64,000 nt of DNA from NCBI GenBank assembly GCA_963804645.1, contig CAWDRG010000005.1, forward strand, positions 296,089-360,088, in the 5' to 3' direction. This DNA is from an uncultured Bacillota bacterium. Lineage in GTDB: Bacteria > Sysuimicrobiota > Sysuimicrobiia > Sysuimicrobiales > Segetimicrobiaceae. A program made the translations under genes and the position numbers. Under the pieces are notes generated by a model. That model searched no databases. It was not told the DNA's origin and saw only the letters and a list, made by a program, of their open reading frames with translations. Positions 2,894 through 19,851 of this stretch are shown here, in pieces. Positions within the stretch are counted from its first letter, which is position 1; every line of letters starts with the position of its first letter.

Positions 2894-2949
2894 AGGAGGT
2901 GTCGCACCGTTCGACGCCCTCACAAACCCATCCTTTGAGACCGCGGGCG

Positions 2950-5190
2950 CTACTTGGCCTGGCCGCCGGGATAGATCGCGCGCATCGAGCTCAGGTACAG
3001 GACGCCGTGCGGAGTCTTGGTCGGATCCGTCACCACGACATAAAACGACGACCAGCTGATCGGGAACGCCAGCCCGGGAGGAAACGCCGCGGTGACCGAG
3101 CGCCACCCCGTCCAGTCGACGCGCTGGGCCAGCGTCACCGTCCCCTTCTCGCCGTTCTCCTGGTCGAACACGCCGCGCAGCCACGCGCCGCTGCCGTCCC
3201 CGTAGACCCACACGCTGACGCCCGATGGCTCCCCGACGAGCGGAATCTGCGTCTGCACGTACGCCGCGCGCGTCCCGGTGCCGTCGAGGCGGTAGGTCAG
3301 CGCGACCGACGGGTGGCCGTCGTGGCTCGGATCGGAGACGCGCGCGACGTCGCCGGTGACGGAGTCGGGATAGCCGCGGAAGGTCCACGCCCCGACGTCG
3401 AACTGGTCCAGGTACCGAGCCGTGCTGCCGATCGCGACGCGTGCCTGTCCGAACGTGCCTCCCAGGGTCGCGGTGACCGTGCCGTTGCCGGCCGCGTCGC
3501 CGGGCACAAACGACCCCGACGGCGAGATGGTGCCGAGCGTCGGCGGCGCGACGGTCCACTGCGCGATGCCGCTCGGCACGATCACCGGCCGCCCGGTGCG
3601 GTCCACCGCGCGGACCGTGAACTGCGCCGGCTCCCCAGGCGCCACGGTCAGGGTCGCGGGGCTGACCACCAGCTTGGCCAGCTGGGTCACGACCGAGACC
3701 GGCGCGGTGCCCGACGCGGCGCCGCTCTGGACCGTCATCGCGCCGGATCCCGCGGACGTCGATGCGGTCACCGTACCGTCCGGTCCGACCGTGACCAGCC
3801 CGGGCGGGGACGTCACCGCCTGCAGCGGATCCGTCAGGGTCGTCGGGTTGCCCTGCGCGTCGACGCCGATCACCGAGAGCGCCGTGGATGCGCCCGCGAA
3901 CAGCTCGAAGGGCTGCCCGGCGTTCACCAGGAGGCGCGCGGGCGGCCCCGGCACCGCGGAGCTGTACACCAGCACCGCGTCGCCGACCGGGCGCTCCTTG
4001 CCGTCCGACGGTGAGTTGACGACCGACGGCGCGGCGGCGCCCGGCAGGCGCACAACCATCGTCGCCGAGCCTCCGCTGTCGAACGCCATCGCCTCGGACG
4101 CGCCCAGCCGCTGCATGTAGGCCGCCAGCTGAGGGCGGGTCAGCCCGATGCTCAGGGCGGGCTGGCGGCCGTCGACCTCGACAAACGTCAGGGTGCGCCC
4201 GTCCGGCGCGATGCCGACGGCGATCACCGGATAGCGGTGGCTGCTCTCTGACGGCGACGGCGGGTCGGAGTCCGTCGCGATCTGTCCGTTCGCCACCAGC
4301 AGCGGCCCGCCGCCGACCGCGAGCTGCGCATCGTGCCAGTCCGGATCGGTCGTCAGCGCCAGCTGGACCGGCATCCCGGTCGTGAGCCGGTTGAGCCAGT
4401 CCGCCCCCGCGCCCCGTCCGACGAGGATCACATCGTCGTTGGGAAACGGCACGTAGAACGGCTGCTGCGGCCACAGCTGCTTCACGAAGGCGTGCCCCTG
4501 ATCATCGGGCGGCGTGAGCTCCGCGACGACCTGGCGGGTCGCCGCATCGGGCTGCGGCGCCCCGTACCCGCGGATGTTGGAGAGCAGGACGATCCCGTTC
4601 GGCGACAGGCCGCTGTTGTACCCGTCGAGCGGCCGCGTCTCCCCGGTCGCGGTCAGCGTCACCGTGCCGGTCCACCGGTACCGGATGATGCGCGCGGCGC
4701 CGTCCCGACCGATGACGAGCGCGATCCAGCGCCACGGGCTGCGGAGCAGCTGCCCGTTCTGGATCACCAGATTCAGCGGAATCCCCGATTCGTGGATGTC
4801 GAAGTAGTCGGCGTTGATCCCCGCGATCGCCCCGGTGCGGAGCGCCATCGAGGAGACCGTCTCGTCGTCGCTCATCAGGCGGTCGCGCGCGATCCCGACG
4901 CCGAGGTGGATCGTCGGATTGCTGAGGTCGACCTGCATCTGATGCAGGTCGAGGGGGCCGTCGGCGGTGGCCAGGGTCAGATGGCGGTACTGAATGCCGG
5001 ACGCGACCGGAAGATCGACCACAGCGGTCGCGAGGATGGAGGGCCAGCCGCCCGGGGGGCCCTGGGCGAACACGCCCGGGCTGAGCAGCGACAGCACGAG
5101 GAACAACGCCACGCCGAACACGAACCTGCGACAATGGTACTTCCGTAGAGTCATGCGATGCCGTCCGCTGCTGCGTCGTACGAGAGTCAT
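2950..5190 (-). CDS. Secreted phosphodiester glycosidase (NAGPA-like) protein with Ig-like and C-terminal carbohydrate-binding-like domains
   Basis: Motifs AGINADYF, AVGGGPLLV, VDGRQPALSIG, AMAFDSGGSATM and NSPSDGKERPV; signal peptide. Confidence 0.85.
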   Translation of the reverse strand: MTLVRRSSGRHRMTLRKYHCRRFVFGVALFLVLSLLSPGVFAQGPPGGWPSILATAVVDLPVASGIQYRHLTLATADGPLDLHQMQVDLSNPTIHLGVGIARDRLMSDDETVSSMALRTGAIAGINADYFDIHESGIPLNLVIQNGQLLRSPWRWIALVIGRDGAARIIRYRWTGTVTLTATGETRPLDGYNSGLSPNGIVLLSNIRGYGAPQPDAATRQVVAELTPPDDQGHAFVKQLWPQQPFYVPFPNDDVILVGRGAGADWLNRLTTGMPVQLALTTDPDWHDAQLAVGGGPLLVANGQIATDSDPPSPSESSHRYPVIAVGIAPDGRTLTFVEVDGRQPALSIGLTRPQLAAYMQRLGASEAMAFDSGGSATMVVRLPGAAAPSVVNSPSDGKERPVGDAVLVYSSAVPGPPARLLVNAGQPFELFAGASTALSVIGVDAQGNPTTLTDPLQAVTSPPGLVTVGPDGTVTASTSAGSGAMTVQSGAASGTAPVSVVTQLAKLVVSPATLTVAPGEPAQFTVRAVDRTGRPVIVPSGIAQWTVAPPTLGTISPSGSFVPGDAAGNGTVTATLGGTFGQARVAIGSTARYLDQFDVGAWTFRGYPDSVTGDVARVSDPSHDGHPSVALTYRLDGTGTRAAYVQTQIPLVGEPSGVSVWVYGDGSGAWLRGVFDQENGEKGTVTLAQRVDWTGWRSVTAAFPPGLAFPISWSSFYVVVTDPTKTPHGVLYLSSMRAIYPGGQAK

Positions 5191-5344
5191 TCGCCTCCGG
5201 ATCGCAACGCCCTGCCGGCGCGCCGCGCGCCCCCTAGTACTACAAAGTCACGATTCTGGCAGGATTTTGCCCGCATGTGCCGAACAGCGGTAGTCGCGTA
5301 CGCATACATCGCACCTCTTGTCGCAGCAGACGTCGTCGTAGCAG

Positions 5345-6564
5345 GTGTCGCCGATGGCCAATGCGCCGCCTTTTGCCGATCCCGATCTGCGTCAGCGGTT
5401 GATCGAGTACCTCACGGCCGTCCTGCCGGAGTTGGGCCGCAAAGATCGCCGACCGTGGGCGCAAGCGTATGTGCGCGGCTTGCTGCTGGAAGGCGAGCGG
5501 AAATCGATCGAACCCATGGCCAAGCGCTTGCCGGACGGCAATGTGCAAGCCATGCAGCATTTCATTGGAAAGAGCCCGTGGCCGTATGAGCCGGTCCGCC
5601 GGCGGTTGGCTGGTGTGTTGTGCGCGGAAATGGGCTCCGGGCTGTGGATCGTCGATGACACCGGGTTTCCCAAGCAGGGCAAGCATTCCGTCGGGGTGGC
5701 GCGGCAGTACTCGGGCACGTTGGGCAAGGTGGCCAACTGCCAAATCGCGGTCAGCCTGCACCATGCCACGACGCTGGCGAGTCTGCCCATCGACTGGGCG
5801 TTGTACCTGCCGGAAGCCTGGGCCGCGGATCGCGCGCGCTGCGCCCGCGCGGGCGTGCGGCGGCGTCCGTGGACTACCGCCCCAAATGGCGGTTGGCGCT
5901 CGAGATGATCGATCACGCTCGACAGTGGGGCCTGGGGGACCAACGCGTCGTCGCCGATGCTGGCTATGGCACCATCGCCGATTTCCGTGCGGGCTTGCGG
6001 GAGCGGCAGTTGCCCTATGCCGTGGGCGTCGAATCCGGCACGGGCGTGTGGATGCGGTATCCGCGACGTCGGCGGCACCCACCCACCGTGCGCGGCCGGC
6101 CGCGTACGCGCTGGGACTACGGGGGCCAGCGGCCGCCCAGCGTCCTCGAGGTGGCGCGCGCGTTGCCAAAAGCCGCTTTTCATACTGTGACGTGGCGCGA
6201 AGGGAGCCAGGGCCAGCTCCGGTCGCGCTTCGCGCACGTCCGCGTCTGACCGTCCCACGGCTTTCATGAGGGCAAGCCGCCGGAGGCCGAACAATGGCTG
6301 CTCATCGAGTGGCCGGCCGACGCCGCCGAGCCGACCAAATACTGGTTCGTCACCGGCCCGCGGCGGCTGTCGCTGTTGCCACTGGTGCGCTGGGCGAAGG
6401 CGCGCTGGCGAATCGAGCAAGATTATGAACAGTTGAAGGGCGAACTGGGCCTCGACCACTTCGAAGGACGCCGCTGGCTGGGCTGGCATCATCACGTGAC
6501 GATGACCACAATGGCGTACGGGTTTCTCGTGCGCGAACGGCTTCGTCCCCTCGGGAGTAAAAAA
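5345..6564 (+). pseudogene. IS701-family transposase, main part (frameshift about 5865, TGA at 6247-6249, interrupted at the A-run)
   Basis: Motifs RKSIEPMA, IVDDTGFPKQGKHSVGVARQYSGTLGKVANCQ, VVADAGYG, RWRIEQDYEQLKGELGLDHFEGR and WHHH. Confidence 0.93.
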
Positions 6565-6567
6565 GGT

Positions 6568-9500
6568 TCATCCGGCATTTTCGGGAATTCCAGGAAACGC
6601 GGCCATGATCTTCAGGAAGAAGTAGCCATCGTCTCGGTAGCCGTACCCCATGCGCTTGAGGACCTTGATCTTGTGGTGGGTAGAGGACGGCCTCGGATCG
6701 ACCCTTGCGCCGTCCTCCCCCCGCAGAACCCGGCGTGCAGGTTTCCCGCACCGGGCTCCCCAGAGCGACATTCACGCCTCGGCCTCGTCAGACCGTCGGA
6801 TGTAGAGTCTTCGGGCGTGGCAGTTCAAACCACGAGCGGCTCCTGAGGTAGCTCCAGAACAACCGGTGCCATTGGCCGCGCCGACGCAACGTTCTTAGCC
6901 ACTGGAGCTGGACCTCATGACAGACCCAGTCCAACTTCCGCTCGCAGTGGTGTAGGGCGAAGTACTGGTAAAATCCCCGCAGCATCGTCGTAAGGTGAGC
7001 CTGTTGCGCCCGGCGATTCCAGTGCATATGGCTCCTGAGCCATTCATGGGTGCGATCCAGAAACGTCCTGCAGCTGTCGTGTGCCGGAATGCGCACCACG
7101 GCGAACTTGCCCCGCCGGTCCCTACCGCACACGTGCTTGAAGCCCAGAAATACGAACGTGCCTGGCTTCTCTCCATGTGCGGCGGCCCGCTTTCGGGCCT
7201 CTCGCCCAAACAGCAGTAGGCGCGTCTTCTCTGGTTTTAACTCCAGGCCGAACTTCTGCATCCGCTCCGCCAGTTCGCGGCCGAAGGCGTTCGCTTCCGC
7301 CTGATGCTCGAAACATACCACGAAGTCGTCCACAAACCGAATCAGGTGAGCGGCCCCTTGACAGCTCCGCTTGAACCGTCGCTCGAACCAGAGGTCGAGG
7401 ACGTGGTGCAAGTAGAGATTGGCGAGCACGGGGCTGATCGGATTGCCTTGCGACACGCCCTCCCTGTTTCGGACGACAACTCCGTCGTGCATCACCCCGG
7501 CCCTGAGCCACTTGCCAATGAGCCTCAGGATTACGGGATCGGCGATGCGATGGGCCACCATCTTCCGTAACCAGTCGTGATTGATGCGTGTGAAGTACCC
7601 GCAAATATCCGTCTCGAAGACGTACTGTGCTTTCCCCGCAATCAGATGGCCGCGAAGATCTCGCAATGCCTGGTGCGGGTTACGCCCGGGCCGGTATCCG
7701 TATGAGCACTCCACGAAGTCCTGCTCGTAGATGGCGCTGAGAATCCGCGCCACTGCGCGCTGCAGTAACCGGTCTTCCACCGTGGGAATGCCGATCGGGC
7801 GCATAGCCGACGTGTCCCCAGGTTTGGGGATGTCTACCCGTCGCACCGGTGGAGCCTGATACCGCCCTGCTTTCAGTCGTTCCCAGAGATCGACGACCCG
7901 TATCTCCAGATCGCGCTCGAACTGCGCGCATGTCTCTCCATCCACTCCGCTGGCACCCCGCCGGTTCATCTGCTGCCAAGTTTCTTTCAGAAACTCTGGC
8001 GTCAGAATGTGCGCCAGCGACGTGAAGCGGCACTTCGGGTCTGCCTTGGCTTTGATCGCTATCCCGGCCAGTCCGGTGGTCACCCTGATCCTCCCTCTGA
8101 AGGTGGAGGGGATGTTTCCCCGACCAAGGTCGTACGCTCTGCCCCGCCGCTTCCCCATGTACGCGGCTCTCCCGCGCTCCGAGTACTACCAGCGGGTCCG
8201 ACTTCCACCGCGGCGTTTGCCTCTCTTCGGTCGAACCATCTCGATCGGCATACTCGATCCACTCGATCAAGACCGCGGTGGATCTCCCAGGTCCCTCGAC
8301 GCGTCCGTCTCCGTCCGTGCCGTGCTCTCAGACCCCGCCGGGGTCTCCGGCATCCTCGCCCTAACGGATGCGTACTGTTGCCTTCCACGATAACAACCGT
8401 GTCGGCCCCCGGATTAGGAAGTCACGAGGCTCAATCGCTTCCTTTGCAGTACGGCCCGGACGTCGCCCTGTCTACGCTTAGCCCATGTCGTTACCTCCAT
8501 GAGCCCAAGACTCGGTTCCCGGTGGGTGGCTGGCCCTTGCCGGGGCGGGAATTGCACCCGCTGGACGCGCCAGATTTGTCCTGGCGCGCTGTTGATGCCC
8601 TCGAGGAGGCTGGTGTGTAACGGATAGCGACAGTGCGCGATGATCCCGGGGAGCCGCATCTTGAGATGGCGGGCAAACGTCTTGAGGGGTTCAATGCGAC
8701 TGCGGATGGCACGGTGGTACCAGTCGGTGAAGAAGCGGGTGGCGGCGCCAGGATAGGTATAGTCCCACATCTGCTTGAGATCATCCTTCAGCACGTAGAC
8801 GGCCGCAAGCCGCCGGTTGGCTGCCAAGAGGTCCTGGAGTCGTACGCGATCCTCCGGTTTGACGTTCTCACGATTGCGCAAGAGGAGCCACCGCGCGCCT
8901 TTGATCACCTTGCGGGCTTCTTTGTCGCGCCGCACGCGATTGGCTTCGTCCACGCGCACCCGGTCAATGACTTCGCGCCCGTACTTGGCGACCACGTGGA
9001 AGAGGTCATAGACAAGGACCGCGTGCGGACAATGGGCGCGCACTTCTTCTTCGTAGGCCGTGTTCATATCCATCACCACCGCCTGCAGACGCTTGCAGCC
9101 CTCGCCACCTAACAGCGCGAAGAAAGGACGGACGTCGTCGCGACTCCGGCCTTCGCCGACCCAGAGCACGCGTTTGCGCCGGGGTTCGACCACCACCGTG
9201 GCGTAGCGGTGGCCCTTTCGCAGGGCGAATTCATCCATCGCAATCGTTGTCACGTTGGACAGGTCCACCGGGAGCAACTGCTCTGCCAACGCGGCCACGT
9301 CCAGGTTTTTCACGGTGTCCCAGTCGAGGCCGTAGAACTCTGCCACGTGCTTCACCGGCAGGATGCGGCAGAGCCGGACCACGCTCTCCGCCAGGCGCTT
9401 GGTCACCCGGTCCCAGGCCGACAGCCAGGACAGGGCCTCGATTTTGGGGCCGCACGTGGGACAGGCAACGCGGTAGCGCGGCACCCATACGTGAGTCTCG

Positions 9501-9721
9501 GCGTCGAGCAGCGGCAGATCCCGGATGCAGCGGACCACCATCTCATGCGCCTTCGCCGTCTCTTGGCCGCACCCGGAGCACCGGAAGGTCCGCTTCTCGC
9601 GGGCCAGCGTGATCTCCACCCGCGGTTTGCCGGCTCCCGTCGTTGGTTCGATGCGCTCCACCAGCTTCACCCGATAGCATTCCCACCCGACCAGCACATT
9701 GGTAGACTGATCATGAGGCAA
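6568..9721 (-). CDS. ISL3 transposase, join(8590..9721, 6568..6674); 412 aa after intron removal
   Basis: Zinc finger CSGCG/CPTCG, IAMDEFALRKGHRY, VVMDM and YDLFHVV. The splice junction restores LEGINNKIKVLKRMGYGYRD in frame (1239 nt). Confidence 0.9.
6675..8589 (-). mobile_element. Group II intron 1 (1915 nt) in the ISL3 transposase gene
   Basis: 5' end GCGCGCCAGG; domain V GAGCCCGGTGCGGGAAACCTGCACGCCGGGTTC; domain VI ending CTACCCACC. Removal restores the exon frame. Confidence 0.9.
6788..8158 (-). CDS. ltrA: Group II intron reverse transcriptase/maturase, no endonuclease domain
   Basis: RT motifs ASGVDG, RPIGIPTVEDR, SYGYRPGR, GVSQGNPISPVLANLYL and FVDD, plus an X/thumb region. No C-terminal HNH. 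The true start is probably downstream of 8158 (VTTGLAGIA). Confidence 0.93.
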   Translation of the reverse strand: MGKRRGRAYDLGRGNIPSTFRGRIRVTTGLAGIAIKAKADPKCRFTSLAHILTPEFLKETWQQMNRRGASGVDGETCAQFERDLEIRVVDLWERLKAGRYQAPPVRRVDIPKPGDTSAMRPIGIPTVEDRLLQRAVARILSAIYEQDFVECSYGYRPGRNPHQALRDLRGHLIAGKAQYVFETDICGYFTRINHDWLRKMVAHRIADPVILRLIGKWLRAGVMHDGVVVRNREGVSQGNPISPVLANLYLHHVLDLWFERRFKRSCQGAAHLIRFVDDFVVCFEHQAEANAFGRELAERMQKFGLELKPEKTRLLLFGREARKRAAAHGEKPGTFVFLGFKHVCGRDRRGKFAVVRIPAHDSCRTFLDRTHEWLRSHMHWNRRAQQAHLTTMLRGFYQYFALHHCERKLDWVCHEVQLQWLRTLRRRGQWHRLFWSYLRSRSWFELPRPKTLHPTV

Positions 9722-10017
9722 GGTGCTCCCCCTTCCCTGAAGCGCCGTGTTCGCAGCACGTGCTCAAGGATAGGGGTGTGGTACCTTGCCTTCAACCTAT
9801 ACGGCTATCCCGGTTTTGCCTGAAGAACCGTAAAAAAACCATAATGGCAAAAGTAGCATCGGCGGCATGTGCGACCACTGATGTCGAGGATTCATCCTTA
9901 GGCATTCTGAAGATCAACGACGGCGAAGTGACGCGTCAGGCACTCGAGCACAGCAGTGATCATTGTACGCAAATCAGTTCGAGTCGTGAACGCGATAGAG
10001 AGACGCGTCGTGGAAGA

Positions 10018-10254
10018 CTATAGGGGCTTGCTCGGGGCGGAGGTTTGCCAGAGCTGTTCCAGTCGGGTGAGGAATGCCTCAGGCGCTCTTCGGTATCGCG
10101 CTCTCTGACGTCGAGGTTCCTGACTCGCGGCCCAACGTTGCATCTCCGTCCGGTATTGGTCGGTGGGAACGTGAGCAAACCATTCGATCAGGACGTCTGG
10201 AGGCAGATCGACTGCATATACCGCCAATGCTCCGTACCGCATAATGTAGCCCTC
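10018..10254 (-). pseudogene. C-terminal piece of the same transposase, displaced by the cargo element
   Basis: Removing the insert gives the in-frame RKSW(D/E)GYIMRYGALAVY...RARYRRAPEAFLTRLEQLWQTSAPSKPL*. Confidence 0.8.
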
Positions 10255-10291
10255 GGTAATGGTAGCGTATGAAACGCTACCACTACCGAGG
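10251..10291. repeat. Terminal palindrome, left (18-bp arms, one mismatch, 5-nt spacer)
   Basis: CCTCGGTAATGGTAGCGT-ATGAA-ACGCTACCACTACCGAGG. Confidence 0.9.
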
Positions 10292-10700
10292 TCTGGGTGG
10301 TGGGAGCGGCAGCGGTGGTGGCACCACGCCCGGCGGAGGCAGTCCCGGGGGTGGGAGTCCCACTCCGGGTGCGAACTCCGGTCCTGGAAGCAGCGGTGGG
10401 AACGGGGGAAACGAGCTCCGTGGCCCCCACTTCTCCGGCCAACACTGTCATTACTATATGGCCCGTAACTCCGGCGCCCGCGCCGACGACGCCGGCGGTC
10501 CCGGCAGTGCCTGCTGCACCGACACCGGTTGCGGCGACACCGGCAGTGGGCCGACACCCGCGAGGCCTCCAGTGGCGCCGGCGGCCGCTCCTGCGCCAGC
10601 GGCTCCGCAGCGTGCTGGGTTCGGCCCCCCCGTGCTCGGAGGTAGCGGGCCGACTGTGGTACTCGGCGCCCCGCGTCAGCACGGCGCCGGAACATGCCGC
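10290..10700 (+). pseudogene. Gly/Ser- then Pro/Ala/Thr-rich low-complexity coding fragment (cargo)
   Basis: GGGSGSGGGTTPGGGSPGGGSPTPG and VTPAPAPTTPAVPAVPAAPTP tracts in adjacent frames; no clear start. Confidence 0.35.
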
Positions 10701-11066
10701 TCTCAGGGCGGTTCAAGGACAGCCGACCAAGTTACCATTTGGGGGCATGTCGGAAACAAAGCGCTCCCTAAATCACGCTCGGACGCTGGATTGGAACGCT
10801 CATGGCTTCAATGGGGGCGATTTTGTTCGGGTGGAAGGTCGAGTAGTTGGAGAGCGCCTGGCACTTTCAGTTCGCGGTGCGGCCGGAGAATCGGGATACC
10901 GCTGCTCATCTGGGGCGCCGGTACGGGTGGTGCGCCTGTCTTGCAAAAAGCGGATTCCAGCGTCGATTCTGAGGTTACGAGCCGAACGACGGCACGGTGC
11001 CGGACATCCCGGCAGCGAGACGTGCGTCACGCGGTGGGACGGCCCGCTGAGCCCGTGACAACGCAT

Positions 11067-11096
11067 CGGGGAGCGAGTGCGAACCCTCGCTCCCCG
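11067..11096. terminator. Hairpin downstream of the PEP-CTERM gene, probable terminator
   Basis: CGGGGAGCGAG-N8-CTCGCTCCCCG, about 50 nt after the stop. Confidence 0.55.
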
Positions 11097-11146
11097 TCAA
11101 TTTGAAGAGACTTGGTCGCGTTCCTTAACGCTTTACCGGTCTCCGA

Positions 11147-11791
11147 TTAGCGCCTCACCTTGCGGCGAAGCAGACCGGCGGCGCCGACCAGTCCGAAGGC
11201 GAACATCGAGAGCGAACTCGGTTCCGGTACGGGATTAGGGGCGATCTGGCCGGCTGAGATCTGTCCCTCCAGATCAAACCATGCGGTGCCAGTGTTCGCC
11301 AAACCGCTGCTGCCTCCCACGAGAACGGTGCCGCTGTCCAGGCTCGGGCTGATGTTAGCAAAAGTGGCGCTCGCGCTCTCGTAGTCATTTGGGTCGGTAG
11401 ATGTGAAGGAGCCGCCGCACTGAGCGGCCGTTGGGCTGGGAGAATAAGTGCCGATGCATGCACCGTCGCCGTCAAAGCCAAATACTCCGCTACCCACGCC
11501 GCCGGTGATCGCAACGCTCTTCAGTGTGCCACCCGACGAATTCAGAACGCCGATCAAGGTGTCTTCGATGCCGTCGAAGGGCCCCTGATCAGGCGATGCC
11601 GTGGTGACATTAAACCCCGTGGCTACGTCTGAACTGTTGACCGATGTAACCGTAAGCAGCAGTTCGCATCCATTAGTGTCATTACCGACAGGCGGGCACT
11701 CGGTAAAGGAGGCGGCATACACTGCGGGGGTGACTGCCCAGAGAAGCACCGCTACCGCAGTCAGCGCAATACCCCATCTTATCGTCCTCAT
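11147..11791 (-). CDS. PEP-CTERM (exosortase-sorted) surface protein
   Basis: Signal peptide MRTIRWGIALTAVAVLLWA...VYA; C-terminus PVPEPSSLSMFAFGLVGAAGLLRRKVRR; AAGGAGGT SD. Confidence 0.93.
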   Translation of the reverse strand: MRTIRWGIALTAVAVLLWAVTPAVYAASFTECPPVGNDTNGCELLLTVTSVNSSDVATGFNVTTASPDQGPFDGIEDTLIGVLNSSGGTLKSVAITGGVGSGVFGFDGDGACIGTYSPSPTAAQCGGSFTSTDPNDYESASATFANISPSLDSGTVLVGGSSGLANTGTAWFDLEGQISAGQIAPNPVPEPSSLSMFAFGLVGAAGLLRRKVRR

Positions 11792-12247
11792 GCACTTACC
11801 TCCTTGATCGCTGTGGTCGCTGTGGCATTGCTGGGTGGGCTACGGCATCCCCCCTCTCGTTCCGGGGCGACGAGGATCGCGTCTGCGGAGCGCTGACGCC
11901 CTCGGCGCGGAGTCTGACCTCGGAATGGGGCTCGCTGTCCGAACCCATCCTCCATCGAACTCGAATGTGCTTTCCCGTCCCACGGGGGAAATCTTTGTAT
12001 CACTTGAATGAAACAGGCCACAAAAACGAACGACCGCTGGTCGGTGCGGGTTACGAACGTGGCTGCCGAGGCGATTCTGATTACTTCCTTTGAAGGAGGC
12101 TTTGGAAGGAGGCTTTCTGGACCGGGGCGGCAGCAGTCCGGCGCGCACGTCATCCCGCGAGATGCACAGCTTCGCCCCGCGGCGTCGGTTCACTCGATTC
12201 GGTCCGCGCGGATGGCCGAGCCCAGCGCCGGGCCTGGTCGAGGCTCT

Positions 12248-12756
12248 CTAAACGGGCGGTCCGAAGCGGGTGCGCGAGCGTCGCAGCGCGGCACGCAGCC
12301 CCGGGCGGGCCAACTGAAGCGGCGCGCGACCCACCGCGTATCGTACCGTGAGCGGCGGCCGGCGGTGTTTGGTTGCGATCAGGCTTGCCACCTCGGCCCA
12401 GATCGCGCTCAGCAATCCGTTCACGGCGTGTCGGCGGGGCGCCGTGCGCCGATGCGCCAACGCGTGACGGAGCGCGCCGCGGAGCGCTTCGGTGCTCGTG
12501 GTGGGAGCGTCGGACGCGACCGCCACTCGGCGCGCCGCCCAGGCCAAGGCATCTCGCACCGTGTCCTGCCGCACGATGTGCGGGCATCGGGCGGCCGCGC
12601 CGATCATCTGGTCGGGAGCGAAAGCCTCGTCGGAGGCGTGCGCGAGCTGCGTGACGGTGAGCGCCTCGACGAGGGCACGAGCGTCCTCTCTCAGCGGACC
12701 GGTGGCAGCGGTCTGGGGGAGCTGCGTCAGGGCCTTGTCAATGATTAGCCGAACGG
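12248..12756 (-). other. Possible truncated hypothetical ORF (cargo), open from the right palindrome
   Basis: ORF 12248..12787 has its start inside the terminal repeat; helical, Ala-rich, family not recognised. Confidence 0.3.
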
Positions 12757-12791
12757 GGTAGTGGTAGCGTTCCCCAAACGCTACCACTACC
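12757..12791. repeat. Terminal palindrome, right (perfect 15-bp arms, 5-nt spacer)
   Basis: GGTAGTGGTAGCGTT-CCCCA-AACGCTACCACTACC. Confidence 0.92.
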
Positions 12792-13760
12792 TAGCCATCC
12801 CATGACTTGCGCCCCGTGGTTCGGCGGTGTGCGCTCTTGGCGTGGCGCAAGAACCGCTCCAGATCGTTGTTCGTCCGCGGGATCTCGGGGTGCAGAAAAC
12901 AGGTGAACAGCGTGTCGCCGAATCCCTGGGTGTACTTTTGGAAGGATTCCGCGAACAGTTCGTGCGCTGGCTGAGTCACCGCGGCCTGTGCGACCGCGGC
13001 CATGAGCGTGCGCACTCCCATCTTCGCCTGCGCCGCAGCATCATGGGGAAGCACGCCAGGGTATTTCTCTGGATCGATGACCCGAGCGAGACCCAGTAAC
13101 CACGTGTGTTGCTGCTTGAGCGTGGCGTAGTCAGCGCCGTAGATCTGGTGGCGAGTTGCGATGTGGGTCAGGGTCCGCATCATGGGTACGGGCCGGACCG
13201 CAAAGCACCGCTGCAGGGAGGCGTAGATACGCTCCAGATTCTCATAGGCGCGGATGCCCCCGGGTGCAAGTGGCGGCAGTCCGTTGGATCCCGTCGAGGG
13301 AGAGCACCAGCCCGCCGTTCTGCTCGATTTGGCGGCGCACCGCCTCGACTTGCTGGCCGGCCGTGCACCCGAGAAGTGCGAAGTACGCTTCGTAGAGGCC
13401 CTGGACGTGGCGCGCACTGATGATGACCCCGCGCTGGCCGAGCTCGGCATGGATCTCAGCCCGCGTGCAGTGGTCCACCGTCCGGAGGCGCCCCACCGTG
13501 ACCAGCACGTCCATGCCGTACGTCGAGCCCTTGAGGCTCAAGCCTTCGGCGACGGCGGAGCGGTACACGCGGCGGTCGCAAGCGGCAGTCCAGCATCGAT
13601 ACCCGAGGCTCCCGGCCCAGAGCACTTCGGACAGGCCGATGATATGTTTGCGCCAGACGGGGTGACTGTACACCAGAGGCGCCCCGCACACCAGACAGGT
13701 CCGGCATTCGGGGCGGAAGTAGACGCGCCGGGGAGCCGCAAACACACGCGCGCACCTCAC
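12792..13760 (-). pseudogene. Transposase of the 22-bp-TIR element, N-terminal and central part (apparent internal deletion with frameshift near 13283)
   Basis: CLVCG...CWTAAC zinc finger, YGMDVL and LVLSLDGIQ, then an abrupt frame switch to GLPPLAPGG...HPEIPRTNNDLERFLRHAKSAHRRTTGRKSWDG. Confidence 0.8.
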
Positions 13761-14146
13761 GGGCGCTTGCGGATCACCTCCGCAGGATCGAGTTGGGCGG
13801 CTTGCCGAAGGCGCTCCAAGAGACCTTGGAGCTCGACGTCGAGCGCGCGCAGGTGTCGAGCATGCGCCCGCCATCGCCGATACGCGCGGGCCGCTGTGCT
13901 GGCCGGACCCGCCTTGGTCGGCGCCACGGGGAACACGTGCGGCGTGCCCGCACGAAACACTGAGAGGCACCAATAGGGGCCGTGTTTCTTCCCCCGCATG
14001 CAGCGGCACCCCGGCTTCCCGCACACCCGGTAGCGCTTGAACAAAGAGCCGGTCAGAGTCGGCCCGATCGCTAACGCCTCCTCCAAGACAGCGGTTCTCA
14101 GGCGGTTCACCGCTTGCACCTTGGTGCGCAGGGCCTTGGGACCCAT
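13757..14146 (-). CDS. DUF6788-like small Cys/His protein, transposase-associated
   Basis: Motif GSLFKRYRVCGKPGCRCMRGKKHGPYW. GGAGGTG SD upstream. The stop overlaps the GTG of the next gene. Confidence 0.75.
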   Translation of the reverse strand: MGPKALRTKVQAVNRLRTAVLEEALAIGPTLTGSLFKRYRVCGKPGCRCMRGKKHGPYWCLSVFRAGTPHVFPVAPTKAGPASTAARAYRRWRAHARHLRALDVELQGLLERLRQAAQLDPAEVIRKRP

Positions 14147-14304
14147 CCGCCACCTCCGTCTTCTCTATCTGCCACTAGTATTCCTTTTCATAATGCCAGA
14201 TCTCAAACCAAAAAGAAAGGAGCATGCGAAGGAGCGCCGCCGAGCACTCCAGTCACCTGCTCCAGTGCCTGTCTATGGCCGTGATGCTACTTTTGCCATT
14301 ATGG

Positions 14305-14437
14305 AAAAAAAACGGCGCGCGTCCCCACCGTGCCGCAGGTGCGGGCCCAGCTCCAGTACGTCCTGAAAACCTGGACCGGTCGCTGCAGCGTCTGCGGTCA
14401 CCTCGTGCGCCGTCCGACCAAGAATGACCCATCTTAG
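14305..14437 (+). pseudogene. IS701-family transposase, displaced C-terminal piece
   Basis: Resumes at the A-run. One frame reads PTVPQVRAQLQYVLKTWTGRCSVCGHLVRRPTKNDPS*, ending just before the right IR. Confidence 0.75.
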
Positions 14438-14448
14438 ATGTGACTTTG

Positions 14449-16306
14449 GTCGAGTAGGACCAGCGATCGCTCGCTGGGACCCCTCTGCCGAACGGCTCGT
14501 ACGGATCTCCCGTAAGCCGCTCTACCCCATGCCGACTCGTGAGTCATCAGGAATATATCCGAAGAGAGTGGAGCCCCAGACGGCGGTAGAAGAATGTTTC
14601 AGAGTATCGCCGCCAGTTCGCCGTGCGCCAGCGTTTGGCCATGAAGGCCCGCAGCCTCCGAAGGATCCAGCGGTCCAGCGGCCTCCCGATCCGTCGCAAG
14701 TCGCCAATCCGGAAGAATCGTCCCCAACCGCGGAGCACTGGATTTAGCAGCGCCACGATCTCGTCCGCCCGACGCGGTTGGTTACGCCGCGTAAGATGAC
14801 GGACCTTGTCCCGGAGCCGCTGTATTGCTCGCGCCCGTGGCTGTAGGTGCAGTCCCTCCTCATCGCGCCAGAAGCGGAATCCAAGGAACTCAAATCCTTC
14901 CGTAATGTGAACGACCCGCGTCTTCGCAGGATGCAGTCGCAGTCCCAACTGCCCCTCCAGAATCTGGTGGACCTGCTCCAAGGCCGCCTCGGCGTCCTCG
15001 CGCGTTCGGCACACGATGACACTGTCATCAGCATACCGGACCGCGCGATGTCCTGCCGCGAGCATCTGATGATCGAAGGTGTTCAGAAACGCATTACTGA
15101 GCAGCGGCGAAACTACACCCCCTTGCGGGGTGCCCGCTACCAGGGTACGCTTCTTGCCCTCCTCCATCACCCCGGCCTGGAGAAACGCCTGCACGAGCCG
15201 GAGAATCCGCCCATCCGCCACCACCTCGGCGACTGCGGCCAGCAGCCGCGCATGGGACGCGGTGTCGAAAAACTGTTCAATATCGATTTCGACAATCCAC
15301 TCGCCCCCGTGATGCAGGCTCGCCATCACATCGCCAATGGCCTGATGCGCTGACCGTCCTGGACGAAACCCGTAACTGGTCTCCGCAAACCGCGGCTCAA
15401 AGTGCGGTTCCAGCCGCAGACGCATCGCCTGCGCCACGACGCGATCTCGTACAGCAGGGATCGCGAGGCCGCGACGACGTCCATCGGGTTTGGGAATGTA
15501 GACGCGACGCCCGGGCTGGGGCACATAGGCATCGTCCTTGAGGGCCGCCTGGAGTCCTTGCAACTCCTCATCCAAGTGTGCCTCAAATGCCTCAAGGCTC
15601 TGACCATCCACGCCCCACGTCCCGTGGTTCGCCTTGACCAGCGTCCAGGCCCGCCGCAGATTCGGCAGGTACCAGACCTTGTCGATGAGCGAGCCGACCT
15701 TGATCGGATGCACGTCCTCCGCCACTCCTCCTCCTTCCTGACCAGAGTCCTGTTGGTCGGGGTCTGCACCGGTCGCGGCTCGGGAGCTGCTCATGACAGA
15801 GATCCCTTACCCCGCGCTCGTCAAGCCGATCCCGCCTTCAGGCCACCAAGCATGGAGCGGGTCCCTTCGCTCTGCCAGGTTTCCCTGACCTCATCGCTAC
15901 GTCTGGACCCGTCCGACTCCTGAACGTGCATCGGGTTGGCTTTTCCCCTTCCGGGTTATACCGTCCCTACCTGTCCGCGCAGGACCGAACCCTACTCGCG
16001 ACAGGACACGCTCAGGCCTCCCCGGGTCATGCTGCTCTCTGTCCCACCATGCTGCCCGCACCCACGACTGATCCCCCCTGGTCTTCTCTGGATGCCCCTT
16101 CCTCCAGTACTAGCAGAGTCGGGCCTCCAGGGGTTCGCGCCGACCGGTTCGCCTGGCTTCGACAGCCTCGGCTGCGGCCTGGTGGTTTGCCTCAGGTCCT
16201 TCAGATTCCGCCTCGCGACGGACACCCTACCCTTTTCGGCTACGGTCCGCATCCAGCTGGACCGGCAGGTCTTTCACCTGCGAGAGAACAGCACTGCCGG
16301 GCACAC
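14449..16306 (-). mobile_element. Group II intron 2 (1858 nt) inserted inside the right terminal IR of the IS701 element
   Basis: 5' end GTGTGCCCGG; domain V GAGCGGCTTACGGGAGATCCGTACGAGCCGTTC; 3' end CCTACTCGAC. Removal restores a perfect 14-bp IR. Confidence 0.93.
14547..15794 (-). CDS. ltrA: Group II intron reverse transcriptase/maturase, no endonuclease domain
   Basis: SLIDKV, GVDG, IPAVRDRV, SYGFRPGRS, GTPQGGVVSPLLSN, YADD and LNPVLRGW. The real start is probably a GTG near 15713-15725. Confidence 0.94.
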   Translation of the reverse strand: MSSSRAATGADPDQQDSGQEGGGVAEDVHPIKVGSLIDKVWYLPNLRRAWTLVKANHGTWGVDGQSLEAFEAHLDEELQGLQAALKDDAYVPQPGRRVYIPKPDGRRRGLAIPAVRDRVVAQAMRLRLEPHFEPRFAETSYGFRPGRSAHQAIGDVMASLHHGGEWIVEIDIEQFFDTASHARLLAAVAEVVADGRILRLVQAFLQAGVMEEGKKRTLVAGTPQGGVVSPLLSNAFLNTFDHQMLAAGHRAVRYADDSVIVCRTREDAEAALEQVHQILEGQLGLRLHPAKTRVVHITEGFEFLGFRFWRDEEGLHLQPRARAIQRLRDKVRHLTRRNQPRRADEIVALLNPVLRGWGRFFRIGDLRRIGRPLDRWILRRLRAFMAKRWRTANWRRYSETFFYRRLGLHSLRIYS

Positions 16307-16311
16307 TAGTA

Positions 16312-17700
16312 CTAGGGTTTGGCGGGCGCGGACGGCGTGACGGTCGACGGCGCGTGGCTCGGCGTGATCGTCGAGCCGGGGCGTGTGGCCGGCGCCGCGC
16401 TGCCGGCGGGCGGCTGCAGGCCGAGAAAATCCTTAATCGGCTGCGGGAAGCTATCCAGCACCCCGGCCGCGAGCGTGTACTGGAGTCCGAGCGCGCGGTT
16501 CACCGCGACCCACCCGTTGTACTGTTTGTAAAACTGCACCGTGAATCTCGCGTCGGCGCCGCCGTCGGTCTGCACCTCGAACGCCGGGGCGGCCGCGAAC
16601 GAGGACGTCAGCGCCTGCACGCGGTCCGCGTCCATCAGGTTCACCGACGAAAACATGTCGGAGACGTTCTGATCGCTCAGGTCGCTCCCGGTAAACCCCG
16701 GGCCCTGACGGCGGACCTCGAGGGTCTTCCCGTTCCGGCGCCACGTGAACACGGTCAAGTCTTGAGGATTGTACGGCAGCACGTGGGTGCTGACGAGCGA
16801 GATCGGCGCGGGGGTCATCCGCCCGTCGAGGTCCGCGTCGAGCTCCATCACCGTGCGGCCGCCGGCGACCATCGCGTACGTCACCTTCGGCCCCTTCGCG
16901 AACAGCATCCGCAGGGGCTCCGGACGCCCCTTCATCGTGAGATCGAGCGTGACGTCCGGATGATCCAGCCCGTAGGGGGCCAGGTCGGTCACGCCGTCAT
17001 GGAACACCTTGCCGTCGGAGGTGGTGAGCGGGAAGAACAGATCCGTGACCTTGAAATCGTCGGCCGGCCACGGCCGGCTCCCCTCGATGCGCCAGCGGTC
17101 GGGGCCGGTGCGGTCCACGACCAGCGATTCCGTCGGCGACGTGATGCGCACCTGCTGGACGTCGGCGTTCGCGAAGTCCGCGAGGGTCTTCTGGCGGAGG
17201 TCCGCGGCGGTCTTCGTCAGCCCATCCTTCGCGGTGCTGTCGACGACGTACAGCGAGGTGCCGGGGTCGAGCTTGGCGTAGAGCGCGTTGCCGACCGGCG
17301 ACGGCTTCCCGAGCTCCACGGTCACCGATCGCCCGCCGGAAGTGCGCAGCGTCACGCGCACGGTCGGCCGGTCGAGGCCGTACGCCGCGAGATCGGTCGC
17401 GCCGCTGAGCGTCCGCTGGGGCACGATCCCGGTGACCGCGTCGAGGAAGTCCGAGACCGACAAGGAGGCCGCTGGGGTCTGAATCGGACGCGTGATCTGC
17501 CAGTGCGTGGGGTCGGTGCGTGACAGTTCGACCGTCTGGTTTGCGGTCGTGATCGTGATTCCGGTGATGTCGGCCTTCTTGAGCTGCACCAGATGGCTCG
17601 CCAGTTCCGCCCGCTGCGCCTGCGGCCGGTCCACCGCGAAGATGTACGCGGCGATCACCACCACGAGGCCGGCGAGGATGAGCGTCGCGCGGGGGGTCAC
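16312..17700 (-). CDS. DUF4340-domain exported protein
   Basis: N-terminal anchor and repeated DLAxYGLDxP motifs; follows the Gld-like ABC genes. Its TAG stop is part of the CTAG target. Confidence 0.85.
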   Translation of the reverse strand: MTPRATLILAGLVVVIAAYIFAVDRPQAQRAELASHLVQLKKADITGITITTANQTVELSRTDPTHWQITRPIQTPAASLSVSDFLDAVTGIVPQRTLSGATDLAAYGLDRPTVRVTLRTSGGRSVTVELGKPSPVGNALYAKLDPGTSLYVVDSTAKDGLTKTAADLRQKTLADFANADVQQVRITSPTESLVVDRTGPDRWRIEGSRPWPADDFKVTDLFFPLTTSDGKVFHDGVTDLAPYGLDHPDVTLDLTMKGRPEPLRMLFAKGPKVTYAMVAGGRTVMELDADLDGRMTPAPISLVSTHVLPYNPQDLTVFTWRRNGKTLEVRRQGPGFTGSDLSDQNVSDMFSSVNLMDADRVQALTSSFAAAPAFEVQTDGGADARFTVQFYKQYNGWVAVNRALGLQYTLAAGVLDSFPQPIKDFLGLQPPAGSAAPATRPGSTITPSHAPSTVTPSAPAKP

Positions 17701-19085
17701 AGGGCGCGCCTCTGGAAGTAGATCGTTCCGCCCGCGAACAGCAGGACGAGCGGCAGCACGATCACGCTCCCGATGAACAGATACCGTCCCTGCGGGCCGG
17801 AGATGATGAACGGGTCGAACGGCGACGTCCGCGGCGCGATGCTGACCAGATCGCCCGATTGGGTCAGCCAGGCGACCGCACTGACGAACAGATCGCGGTT
17901 CCCCACGAGGCCGATCGCCGTGTTCTTGATGAAGCTGCTGTTGCCGAACAGCACCGCGGAGCCCTTCGGAATCGGGGCCGACGCCGGCTTCGGGGCCGGC
18001 GGCTTCCCGGGAGCCGGTGTGGGGGCTGGCGGAGGCGTGCCCGGCGTCACCTCGACCGCGAGCACCGCCGGGCCCTTCACGTCACCCGGCTGGAACCCGG
18101 GATCCTTGGATTCGAGGTTCACCTTCACGTAGCTCTGGTCGGAGCTCTTCACCACCGGCGTCAGGGTCACGGTCGCCGCCTTCGGGTCGGGCACAAGCGG
18201 CGTCGCGACCGGGAACGCCGTGGCGAGGTTGAAGTTCGCCGTAATGTCGTTCGGCGGGTACTGGGCCGCGATCGGCACCGCGAGGTCGCCGCCGAGCAGG
18301 CGGGACACCGGGTCCAGCACGATCCCGCCGGGGGCACTCACGTGGAACGCCGTCGCGAGCCACGCCCGCGTCGCCGCCGGCGTCTGCGGGTCGACCATGA
18401 TCAGCAGCTTCCCGCCGCCCCGGTAGTACGCGTCGAGCGCGGCCTCTTCTTGCGGGAGAAGATCCTTCGAAGGCGACGGGAGGATCACCGCGGACGCGTT
18501 CGCCGGAATCCGGCCGGTCTGGACCAGCACCAGCCCCTGCACGTCGTAGCCTTTGTCCGTCAGCGCCTGCTTGGCGGTCCCCATGCCGGTCCGCGTGAAG
18601 TCGTCGAGCGCGACCTCGCCCTCGCCCTGGATGACGTAGACGGTCTTCTTGGCGGTCTGCAGCACATGGAGCAGGCCGTTCGTCAGGTTCGTCTCACTGT
18701 CGTCATCGGCCGTGTACGAGGCCGACCCGTGCTGGAACACGACCTGCCCGTACGTGGCGATGTGGTACTGCTGCGCCTGGGCGGGGCTGCGGTCGGGATC
18801 CACGATGCGGTACTGGAAGTCCTTGTTGTAGTACTGGTAGGTCTGCAGCATCTGGATGTACGATGGCGCCGAGTCCGCGCTCGGGAACGCGATCACCTGG
18901 ACCGGGCCGGGGAGCGTCTGGAGGACCTTGATCGTCTGGGGTGCGAGCGAGTGCGACCGCGTCGCGGTCAGATCCCAGCGCACGTGGTGCTCCGCCGCCA
19001 GATAATTGAGCCCGACGAGCAGCGCGGCGACCAGCACCGCCGAGACCAGTGCGTTGGTCGTCAACAGGGCGTTGCGGCGCTTCAT
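17697..19085 (-). CDS. GldG-like ABC-type uncharacterised transport auxiliary protein
   Basis: RWDLTATRSHSL, VDPD, GEGE, YYRGGGKLLIMVDP and GNRDLF; N- and C-terminal TM helices. Confidence 0.85.
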   Translation of the reverse strand: MKRRNALLTTNALVSAVLVAALLVGLNYLAAEHHVRWDLTATRSHSLAPQTIKVLQTLPGPVQVIAFPSADSAPSYIQMLQTYQYYNKDFQYRIVDPDRSPAQAQQYHIATYGQVVFQHGSASYTADDDSETNLTNGLLHVLQTAKKTVYVIQGEGEVALDDFTRTGMGTAKQALTDKGYDVQGLVLVQTGRIPANASAVILPSPSKDLLPQEEAALDAYYRGGGKLLIMVDPQTPAATRAWLATAFHVSAPGGIVLDPVSRLLGGDLAVPIAAQYPPNDITANFNLATAFPVATPLVPDPKAATVTLTPVVKSSDQSYVKVNLESKDPGFQPGDVKGPAVLAVEVTPGTPPPAPTPAPGKPPAPKPASAPIPKGSAVLFGNSSFIKNTAIGLVGNRDLFVSAVAWLTQSGDLVSIAPRTSPFDPFIISGPQGRYLFIGSVIVLPLVLLFAGGTIYFQRRAL

Positions 19086-19089
19086 CCCG

Positions 19090-19851
19090 CTACCTCCACT
19101 TTCGCGACTCGAGCGCGAGCACGCCGAGGAACACGAAGAACGCGGCGATACTCAGGAAGAAGACGATGTCCTGGGTGTCCACGACCCCGCTCGCCAGATT
19201 GCTGAAGTGGGTCGAGAACGACAGCGACGACAGCAGCTGCTGCGCGCCCGACCCCGACGCCTGCTGGGCGAACCCCAGCACCCAGAACAGCAGCAGCAGC
19301 GCGAACCCGATCGCCGCCGAGACGATCTGGTTCTCGTTGAGGGTGGAGGCGAACAGCCCGATCGCGATGAACGCGCAGCCGAGCAGCAGCAGGCCGATGT
19401 ACGTCGCGGCCAGCAGCCCCCAGTCGAGCCGCCCCATCGTCGCGAGCGCCAGCGGCATGTAGGTGCTGATCGCCAGCAGCACGATGAACAGCACCAGCCC
19501 CGCGAGGTACTTACCCAAGATGATCGCGGTGCTGGTCACGGGGGACGTCAGGAGGAGCTCCATCGTGTGCGCCCGGTCCTCCTCGGACACGAGGCGCATC
19601 GTAAAGATCGGCACGAGCAGGATCAGCACAAAGCTCGCATCCTGGAACAAGGGCGAGAAGATGATCCGCGTCGGGTCAAAGTCCGCCGGCGGCGGCCCCT
19701 GCAGCTGCAGCACCTGCCCGGTGTAAACGCCGATCAGGGCATAGAACAAGAACCCGACGACCAAGAAGAACATCGCGAGCGCCACGTAGGCGATCGGCGA
19801 CGTAAACAGCTGCTTCAGCTCCTTGCGGGCGATCACCAACGTGCCGCTCAT
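19090..19851 (-). CDS. ABC-2 permease (GldF-like)
   Basis: KELKQLFTSPIAY, TMRLVSEE...TMELLLTSP, ILGKY; six TM segments. Confidence 0.9.
   Translation of the reverse strand: MSGTLVIARKELKQLFTSPIAYVALAMFFLVVGFLFYALIGVYTGQVLQLQGPPPADFDPTRIIFSPLFQDASFVLILLVPIFTMRLVSEEDRAHTMELLLTSPVTSTAIILGKYLAGLVLFIVLLAISTYMPLALATMGRLDWGLLAATYIGLLLLGCAFIAIGLFASTLNENQIVSAAIGFALLLLFWVLGFAQQASGSGAQQLLSSLSFSTHFSNLASGVVDTQDIVFFLSIAAFFVFLGVLALESRKWR

Follow-up and report, generated by a model that had tools for sequence, protein, structure and literature searches.

The 64,000-nucleotide stretch of DNA analyzed here (G000:C5:296089-360088, in the following the window) belongs to an uncultured peat bacterium, whose genome is a metagenome bin of 5.3 Mb in 22 contigs with a guanine-plus-cytosine (GC) content of 68.6%, and it carries, between two intact host genes, an 11-kb stack of six mobile elements and introns. 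The outermost layer is an insertion sequence (IS) of the IS701 family, which houses an IS of the ISL3 family interrupted by a group II intron (intron 1), an element ending in a perfect 22-bp terminal inverted repeat (TIR element) and interrupted by a cargo element, and a second group II intron (intron 2). It is highly probable that this stack is real and that the positions of its layers were dictated by each invader's own target rule and not by random landing. Six nested layers had already been described in an earlier interpretation of the letters by themselves, in the following the sequence-only reading, and were confirmed with boundaries and duplications that are legible almost to the base (Table 1). 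The sizes given there, about 1.47 kb of IS that became 11.07 kb, agree with 1470 bp for the IS701-family element at the outset and a total of 11,074 bp for the nest.

Within the 1470 bp of IS701 sequence, the ISL3 and TIR elements hit the same A-run of 8-9 bp one base apart, which fits target preferences and not random landing. The relatives of this IS701 element have an A7 at the homologous place, within the transposase reading frame, and the A7-8 run is conserved. Runs of at least seven A or T occur only 41 times in the whole GC-rich genome, and one of them is that in IS701. Since the elements related to the TIR element are mostly flanked by A or T runs (detailed below), the A-run would offer the TIR element a favoured insertion site of a kind that is scarce in this genome. 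The flanks of ISL3-type ends (GTAAAAAA, GATAATAA, ATAAATCA, AAATTAAT and TCAATTAC) are AT-rich octamers in five out of five readable cases, with 6-8 A or T per eight bases, and on this basis the same run together with the preceding GT would be a preferred target for ISL3 as well. AT-only tracts of eight or more bases number 365 in the genome. One of the octamers, ATAAATCA, is the duplication around a 327-bp miniature element with ISL3-type ends (G000:C19:294868-295194), which looks like an ISL3-derived miniature inverted-repeat transposable element.

Intron 2 provides the second line of evidence. At least three IS701 copies (window, contigs C2 and C11) carry it at an identical position, five bases inside their right inverted repeat. 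Its orientation is antisense to the transposase of IS701, and an unoccupied IS701 right end is present at C17:733873. The 5' exon common to all copies, CTAGTA(C/T)TA, is made up of the CTAG target and the tip of the IS. While the IS701 bodies in C2 and C11 are about 80% identical to that in the window, the intron copies residing in them differ from the window copy by 1-2 of 1858 nt, which argues for site-specific homing of a recently spreading intron. Judged from these sequences, intron 2 appears to home to a specific site in the IS701 right end plus CTAG. It begins with GTGTG and has two 3' hairpins that fold like domains 5 and 6. Since the intron lies on the strand of the host upstream gene, read-through could transcribe it. 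Homing of the group II intron RmInt1 into ISRm2011-2 of Sinorhizobium meliloti is established (PMC1802570; PMC8914252). Both introns share a natural target inside an IS and the occupation of multiple IS copies in one genome, and the intron 2 protein, in which Pfam recognizes only reverse-transcriptase and maturase domains, resembles the RmInt1 protein that lacks an endonuclease. In contrast to RmInt1, intron 2 has a target that combines the five terminal bases of the right inverted repeat of IS701 with the adjoining CTAG and hence exists only after insertion of the IS, and the intron itself lies antisense to the transposase.

Three candidate observations on intron 2 were discarded. Co-conversion of 146 bp of IS701 beside the intron, suggested by a BLAST match of 98% over 14303-16318, was rejected, as in a column-wise alignment the exon is about 80% and the intron about 100% identical. 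A potential exon-binding loop, UAGUAC, which lies in a hairpin predicted at about 197-202 nt from the 5' end, is complementary to the final six bases of the exon but was given no weight, the chance for a 6-mer in 1.9 kb being about one in three. The region C22:2552-2672, considered as a further nest, contains no more than the first 111 nt of intron 2 together with the tip of IS701, and the DNA next to it is unique. As a separate observation, both intron-bearing IS701 copies in C2 and C11 adjoin the same repeat of about 25 nt, TGTCC[C/T]GAGTC[G/A]AAAGTT (G000:C2:216308-216335 and G000:C11:244220-244248), with opposite IS701 orientations relative to the repeat, which may be the end of another repeated element.

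The N-terminal fragment of the transposase assigns the outermost layer to the IS701 family (206.7 bits with NCBIfam NF033540, cut-off 150; Pfam DDE_5 with E 2.3e-54 and 185 bits, cut-off 27). Without intron 2, its two ends are identical over their outer 14 bases, TACTACAAAGTCAC, and these inverted ends are accompanied by a 4-bp duplication. All IS701 ends seen adjoin CTAG. The copy in the window thereby resembles the family in its N-terminal half above the cut-off, in the length of the duplication and in the CTAG at its ends; it differs from it in being a pseudogene in four pieces. Its identity to the copies at C2:212965 and C11:244249 amounts to about 80%, that between these two copies to about 97%. 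When compared with the C11 copy, which has an open transposase frame, the window copy changes frame near 5865 and is further interrupted by an in-frame TGA near 6247. Two metagenome contigs, L012 and L014, carry further alleles of this element; they lack the extra GG found at 5859-5860 in the window and share the TGA. None of the three alleles seen thus has an intact transposase gene, and each represents a pseudogene. With its transposase broken and split and its right end divided 5 bp from the tip, this IS701 element would now be immobile.

In the sequence-only reading, dead elements were proposed to act as safe landing pads. Under such a model, insertions would occur more or less at random, those in genes would be purged, and a dead IS would remain as a neutral sink. 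This is an unlikely explanation for the positions of the layers. It is difficult to reconcile with the position of intron 2, which is the same to the base in three copies of IS701 including one whose frame is open, with the A-run shared by the ISL3 and TIR elements and with the finding that the ISL3 element hosting intron 1 is not dead, its frame being whole without the intron. Since the C11 copy of IS701 carries intron 2 in spite of its open frame, a dead host element is not required. On the other hand, the proposal accounts for the pseudogene in all three IS701 alleles and for the lack of damage to host coding sequence; the earlier statement that no host gene was damaged holds for the coding sequence of both flanking genes. 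Moreover, bacterial group II introns have been described to prefer and to be tolerated in other mobile elements (PMC4181065). No target rule was shown for the cargo and intron 1, each of which represents a single insertion that says nothing on target choice. What can be retained of the proposal is that a neutral site probably aids persistence of the nest. It does not explain the positions, most of which are accounted for by target choice, and two of the five invaded elements, ISL3 and the C11-type IS701, are not dead.

Natural intermediates were found in a related genome and in public contigs, among them an empty host site and forms without ISL3, without cargo and without intron 2. In the related genome (G004, flanks 88-89% identical) nothing but one CTAC marks the site at which the two flanks meet; positions 1-1487 of its locus L002 correspond to window 3735-5222 and positions 1496-4385 to window 16311-19200. 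Furthermore, joints in Logan contigs from four public runs skip exactly 11079, 3273, 1915, 2545 and 1858 nt (Table 1). The public runs containing the stretch are peat metagenomes; X8, a soil run, and X10 contain only small shares of it and provide no basis for a conclusion on habitat. When the layers were peeled off in silico, the reading frames of ISL3 and of the TIR transposase were restored, and the reconstructed elements have relatives in the genome (ISL3 in C9, IS701 in C2 and C11).

Table 1. Coordinates of the nested elements, their genes and duplications, the flanking host genes and the joints found in public contigs. Positions refer to the window; own sizes exclude the inserted layers.
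Feature	Position	Strand	Size	Flanks	Evidence or remark
IS701-family element	5238-16311	+	own 1470 bp	CTAG both sides	outermost layer
CTAG target duplication, left copy	5234-5237	.			sequence
CTAG target duplication, right copy	16312-16315	.			doubles as TAG stop of DUF4340 gene
ISL3 element	6565-9829	-	own 1350 bp	GTAAAAAA both sides
GTAAAAAA duplication by ISL3	left 6557-6564, right 9830-9837	.			sequence
Intron 1	6675-8589	-	1915 nt	no duplication	inside ISL3
Intron 1 reverse transcriptase/maturase open reading frame (ORF)	6788-8158	-			TIGR04416 331 bits (cut-off 300)
TIR element	9839-14304	-	own 1921 bp	A7 left, A8 right
DUF6788 ORF	13757-14146	-	129 amino acids (aa)		first gene of TIR element; Pfam PF20586 E 5.9e-18
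TIR transposase remnant	12800-13754	-			tblastn and alignment with P0001 and nine further full-length relatives
Cargo element	10255-12791	.	2537 bp	TAGCCCTC / TAGCCATC	inside TIR element
Cargo 8-bp duplication	TAGCCCTC 10247-10254, TAGCCATC 12792-12799				7 of 8 bases agree
PEP-CTERM protein gene	11147-11791	-	214 aa		cargo passenger; Pfam PF07589 E 2.2e-6; NCBIfam PEP-CTERM models
Orphan ORF	12248-12787	-	179 aa		cargo; GC by codon position 0.76/0.58/0.81, coding-like
Intron 2	14449-16306	-	1858 nt	no duplication	five bases inside IS701 right end
Intron 2 reverse transcriptase/maturase ORF	14547-15794	-			TIGR04416 391.5 bits (cut-off 300); RVT_1, GIIM
DUF4340 gene (host)	16312-17700	minus			stop codon TAG provided by right CTAG copy
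NAGPA-domain gene (host)	2950-5190	minus			ATG at 5190
Joint, whole nest	5232->16312				X1, X2; short sides 30 and 27 bases, one base off expectation
Joint, ISL3 and one duplication copy	6556->9830				X2 (side 86), X10 (side 79); 8 shared bases
Joint, intron 1	6674->8590				X2; probably another ISL3 copy, 31 differences
Joint, cargo and one duplication copy	10246->12792				X8 soil run; side 39 bases
Joint, intron 2	14448->16307				X1, X10

The contigs L012 and L014, which were located via the hairpin pattern of the cargo ends, contain IS701 joined at GTAAAAAAA to the TIR element with its cargo and have no ISL3; this allele reads GGGAGTAAAAAAA and then continues directly with the TIR element. 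The identity to the window amounts to 98.3-98.4% for the IS701 part and 99.4-99.7% for the TIR and cargo part. As these two contigs and the joints in X2 and X10 contain IS701 and the TIR element, with or without cargo, but no ISL3, ISL3 was the last to arrive relative to the TIR element and the cargo. The sequence-only reading was correct in that the order of the ISL3 and TIR elements is unreadable from the window alone. With the intermediates at hand, the order is IS701, TIR element, cargo and, afterwards, ISL3 and a deletion in the TIR transposase. From the same material we infer the timing of intron 1, intron 2 and this deletion relative to each other, together with the underlying enzymology (DDE transposition and retrohoming).

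Several layers could also have moved together as a block, for example an IS701 already equipped with TIR element and cargo or with intron 2, and ISL3 could have brought intron 1 along. As L012 and L014 are unanchored to host flanks, such a composite could sit at more than one locus, and the difference of 1.6% between their IS701 part and that in the window would be in line with this. Nevertheless, joint transfer appears improbable. The IS701 transposase is split by the TIR element and the right end by intron 2, so that a composite would need a transposase acting in trans and an intact end. The near identity of the intron copies, as opposed to the 3-20% difference between the IS701 bodies, points to separate and recent homing, and a form of this IS701 type without intron 2 exists.

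The second layer clearly belongs to the ISL3 family: the transposase scored 294 bits with NCBIfam NF033550 (cut-off 180), and its three domains PF01610 (DDE_Tnp_ISL3, E 1.3e-57), PF13542 (helix-turn-helix) and PF14690 (zinc ribbon) are all above their cut-offs. It shares with the family this domain set, imperfect inverted ends beginning with GGTTC and an AT-rich 8-bp duplication, GTAAAAAA in the window and GATAATAA at the copy in C9; the copy in the window differs in carrying a group II intron in its transposase gene. The intact copy at C9:1381380-1382729 is uninterrupted at the intron 1 junction and fixes the limits of the intron. Excision of intron 1 in silico yields a 1350-bp ISL3 with five nucleotide differences from the C9 copy and an open frame of 426 codons, 423 of which encode identical residues. 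Intron 1, single-copy in this genome, lies within codon 378, and its ribozyme is recognized by RF02005 (163.4 bits versus 49) and RF00029 (48.6 versus 40) above the Rfam gathering thresholds. Since it is inserted in sense orientation, splicing could still yield a whole ISL3 transposase. ISL3, with whole ends and a frame that would be whole after splicing, and both introns, with open frames of 456 and 415 aa, may thus still be active.

The layers formed by ISL3 and intron 1 are the least independently supported of the nest, and a misjoining of one or both by repeats has to be considered here. The genome is a metagenome bin in many contigs, the supporting runs are peat metagenomes, ISL3 and intron 2 are repeats, and contig C11 ends inside its intron 2 copy. 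Moreover, the portions of public contigs examined contain only the ISL3-less junction of IS701 and TIR element, and the depth over intron 1 is very low. Even so, we regard such an artefact as very unlikely. A mis-join does not produce an exact 8-bp duplication, GTAAAAAA, the removal of which gives the allele of L012 and L014; for each of the remaining four layers there are independent contigs that bridge it, and intron 1, being single-copy, is not a collapsible repeat.

A number of observations nonetheless weigh against a real stack positioned by target rules. The junctions between ISL3 and IS701 (two) and between intron 1 and ISL3 (two) at this locus rest on the assembly and the 8-bp duplication alone, and among the portions of independent contigs examined neither an ISL3/IS701 junction nor a junction of intron 1 at the locus was present. 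In X1 and X2, the best two runs, the depth over 6935-8095 (intron 1) amounts to 0-2.9, a hole that by itself proves nothing. As the ISL3 copies differ by only 5 nt, the intron-bearing copy could have been misplaced by the assembler. The joint of intron 2 in X1 and the joints of the empty site rest on 27-30 bases at the shorter side. L012 and L014 begin inside IS701, which leaves their origin from the same host locus unproven, and their IS701 part (window 5294-6564) is more divergent, by the 1.6% mentioned above, than the TIR and cargo part with 0.3-0.6%; gene conversion among IS701 copies, a mixed metagenome consensus or a second locus are possible reasons. Intron 2 scores below the Rfam gathering threshold with RF02003 (28.8 bits versus 49) and gives no match with RF00029 at E <= 1. 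Finally, the A7 on the left and the A8 on the right of the TIR element leave the length of the duplication unfixed between 7 and 8, homopolymer lengths being error-prone in long-read assemblies.

If the positions follow target rules, the nest would have formed as follows. IS701 would have inserted at the CTAG overlapping the DUF4340 stop, 44 bp upstream of the NAGPA start, and generated a 4-bp duplication. A Mutator-like IS, the TIR element, would then have entered the A7-8 run of IS701 with a 7-bp duplication, cutting off the end of the IS701 transposase, and the cargo, a transposase-less, hairpin-ended element of 2.5 kb with a PEP-CTERM gene, would have inserted in the 3' part of the TIR transposase with an 8-bp duplication. 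Later, a deletion of about 0.4 kb would have removed the catalytic core from the TIR transposase, and ISL3 would have inserted in GTAAAAAA, one base from the left end of the TIR element. Intron 1 would have reverse-spliced in sense into the ISL3 transposase gene before or after the arrival of ISL3, and intron 2 would have retrohomed to its site, to which IS701 contributes the five bases at its right tip and the target duplication the CTAG.

The TIR element is single-copy in this genome. The N-terminal part of its transposase (13754-13284) and the later part (about 13300-12800) are in different frames, and at about 13284-13290 a stretch of about 135 residues with the catalytic core is missing through deletion; the final 76 codons lie beyond the cargo at 10246-10021. 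The pieces are 57%, 57% and 52% identical to P0001, a relative of 520 aa, the value being 58% for the piece used in the protein search. Contig L014 keeps the core, that is, residues 156-452 of P0001 align in one piece where the window lacks the 135 residues. With the core deleted and the gene split by the cargo, the element would now be immobile by itself. By NCBIfam and Pfam models and descriptions only, it would be a dead representative of a Mutator-like family of IS that is as yet unclassified. For ten full-length relatives the best scores with the NCBIfam family models were 47.7 bits for IS256 (cut-off 150), 39.3 for IS66 (cut-off 180), 25.2 for ISH6 (cut-off 240) and 25.8 for ISL3 (cut-off 180), and the fragment in the window reached 19.9 bits with IS66 (cut-off 180). 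A few Pfam matches of the relatives (Transposase_mut, DDE_Tnp_IS66, DDE_Tnp_ISL3, MULE) are barely at the cut-off, while all NCBIfam matches are far below. One relative, P0197, is labelled 'ISNCY family transposase' by NCBI, and the ISDol1 group of ISNCY may be kin.

Among 1.84 billion representative proteins, 143 relatives of the TIR transposase were found at E <= 0.001. P0001 as sole query revealed no relative in public genomes; a profile search with alignment A2 located the family at 529 places there, in Planctomycetota, Chloroflexota, Actinomycetota, Proteobacteria, Acidobacteriota, Armatimonadota and Bathyarchaeota. Eighty of these loci were retained for analysis, and a search for inverted repeats gave candidate ends in 46 of them. 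Finally, 32 elements from 17 genomes were kept for their family-form ends, the loci dropped being GC-rich chance pairs or undelimitable. Elements of the family are 1.65-2.0 kb long with ends of the type CTAGG..GGCAAA.. or CCATA.. (L035-L048, L051, L077, L082, L083, L096 and others). The same A or T run of at least six, mostly seven, bases flanks both sides in 22 of the 32 delimited elements; two combine an A run at one end with a T run at the opposite end, five have a run at one side only and three have none. Matching runs on both sides are present for at least one element in 10 of the 17 genomes, compared with a background of 0.32 A/T runs (>=6) per kb in the same flanks away from the junctions. 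In a Planctomycetota bin, ten copies define an IS of 1680 bp, the ends of which share the core TGGCAAAAGTAGC with the TIR element of the window; eight of the ten are located between two A or two T runs of at least seven, and in a ninth copy only one of the flanks contains such a run.

On these sequences we see even chances that the relatives constitute a widespread, unclassified Mutator-like family whose transposase would select A7 or T7 runs and duplicate exactly that run. As GC-rich genomes have very few of these runs, every element equipped with one, such as IS701 with the A-run in its transposase coding sequence, would act as a trap and give rise to nests. Set against this, only 32 of the 80 family loci were delimitable, picked by recognizable ends; copies within a genome are not independent, and 15 of the 32 stem from two Planctomycetota genomes. 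Furthermore, T7 at one end is paired with A7 at the opposite end in some elements, an arrangement that simple duplication does not give and that we tentatively ascribe to unproven inversions between copies.

Prokaryotic Mutator-like families, including ISH6 with the AT-rich duplicated target AANATNTT, are treated in Guerillot et al. 2014 (PMC3942029), the accessible portions of which contain no mention of a homopolymer target. In Table S1 of the same article, a family locus in Ktedonobacter racemifer (L061) is not among the two p-MULT 4 entries on that contig, and the inverted ends of the TIR family differ from those listed, a comparison by listed ends only. The relatives of the TIR element resemble the prokaryotic Mutator-like transposases (IS256, ISH6, ISKra4/ISAzba1/ISMich2) in giving weak matches to Transposase_mut, MULE, IS256 and ISH6, and differ from these families in their apparent target, a homopolymer run of seven A or T. 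A literature search for homopolymer-targeting IS and for ISDol1, at the level of listed titles, yielded nothing relevant.

The cargo, which may represent a non-autonomous DDE-type transposon, ends in 14-bp inverted repeats, each with its own inverted copy, which results in hairpins (10255-10287 and 12757-12791). Removal of the cargo and one copy of its 8-mer in silico restores the transposase frame of the TIR element, which then aligns residue for residue with P0001. In Pfam and NCBIfam searches no ORF of the cargo matched a transposase. Its PEP-CTERM gene has counterparts in the host genome, which possesses an exosortase and 11 other PEP-CTERM matches. The orphan ORF of 179 aa has no family match, and its homologues comprise only its own cluster and one protein of 152 aa with 98% identity. 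Two further ORFs, 10269-11105 and 12008-12748, have no matches and a composition that is not coding-like. The hairpin ends were found neither elsewhere in the genome nor in public genomes, and no autonomous partner was found in these or in metagenome contigs. In metagenome contigs, the hairpin-end pattern is present at five loci on four contigs, three of them in the same TIR-element context, and the cargo was found only inside this TIR element. The fourth contig, L013, was rejected, as it contains a similar palindrome behind a GGDEF gene that is not an element end. At window position 12091, one X2 contig has a 13-nt insertion in the cargo, a tandem repeat of the adjoining GAAGGAGGCTTTG, which is a variation in repeat number between strains.

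Nested stacks are known in IS-rich bacterial genomes, as are nested retrotransposons in plants. The nest described here is like them in its succession of elements within elements, the order of which is readable from who interrupts whom, and it differs from nested insertions in general in its six layers from four mechanisms or families within 11 kb and in natural intermediates for every layer. It is rare in bacteria that every layer can be set against such intermediates (empty site, IS701 with TIR element and cargo but without ISL3, cargo-less and intron-less forms). The nesting itself is ordinary, and the homopolymer-targeting IS family is an interesting by-product. A pile-up in dead elements can reflect the choice of target sequences as much as selection, which matters when the frequency of nests is used to infer selection on transposons. 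If confirmed, the unusually simple and sharp A7/T7 target would make the family a convenient model for the recognition of target DNA shape by DDE transposases. The homopolymer runs beside elements of the TIR family would then be duplications and not sequencing noise, a distinction of relevance for annotation.

Both host genes flanking the nest are transcribed in the same direction. The spacer between the DUF4340 stop and the NAGPA start comprises 11,074 bp with a GC content of 0.58-0.69, compared with 0.70-0.75 in the flanks. Located 44 bp upstream of the NAGPA start and immediately behind the stop codon of the DUF4340 gene, which precedes NAGPA on this strand, the 11-kb insert may alter NAGPA expression. 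The closest public relatives of the host genome are uncultured bins labelled Armatimonadota or 'Firmicutes'. On the same contig, about 269 kb upstream of the nest, the region G000:C5:29853-32350 starts with the exact left-end 15-mer of IS701, followed by a 1.3-kb stretch with 86% identity to C9:515550-516829 and then by a window-type IS701 that is inverted and reduced by an internal deletion (window 5612-5750, CC and 14399-14437). The deletion joint of this derivative is present in run X1 as well, and the region may be a second, rearranged nest.

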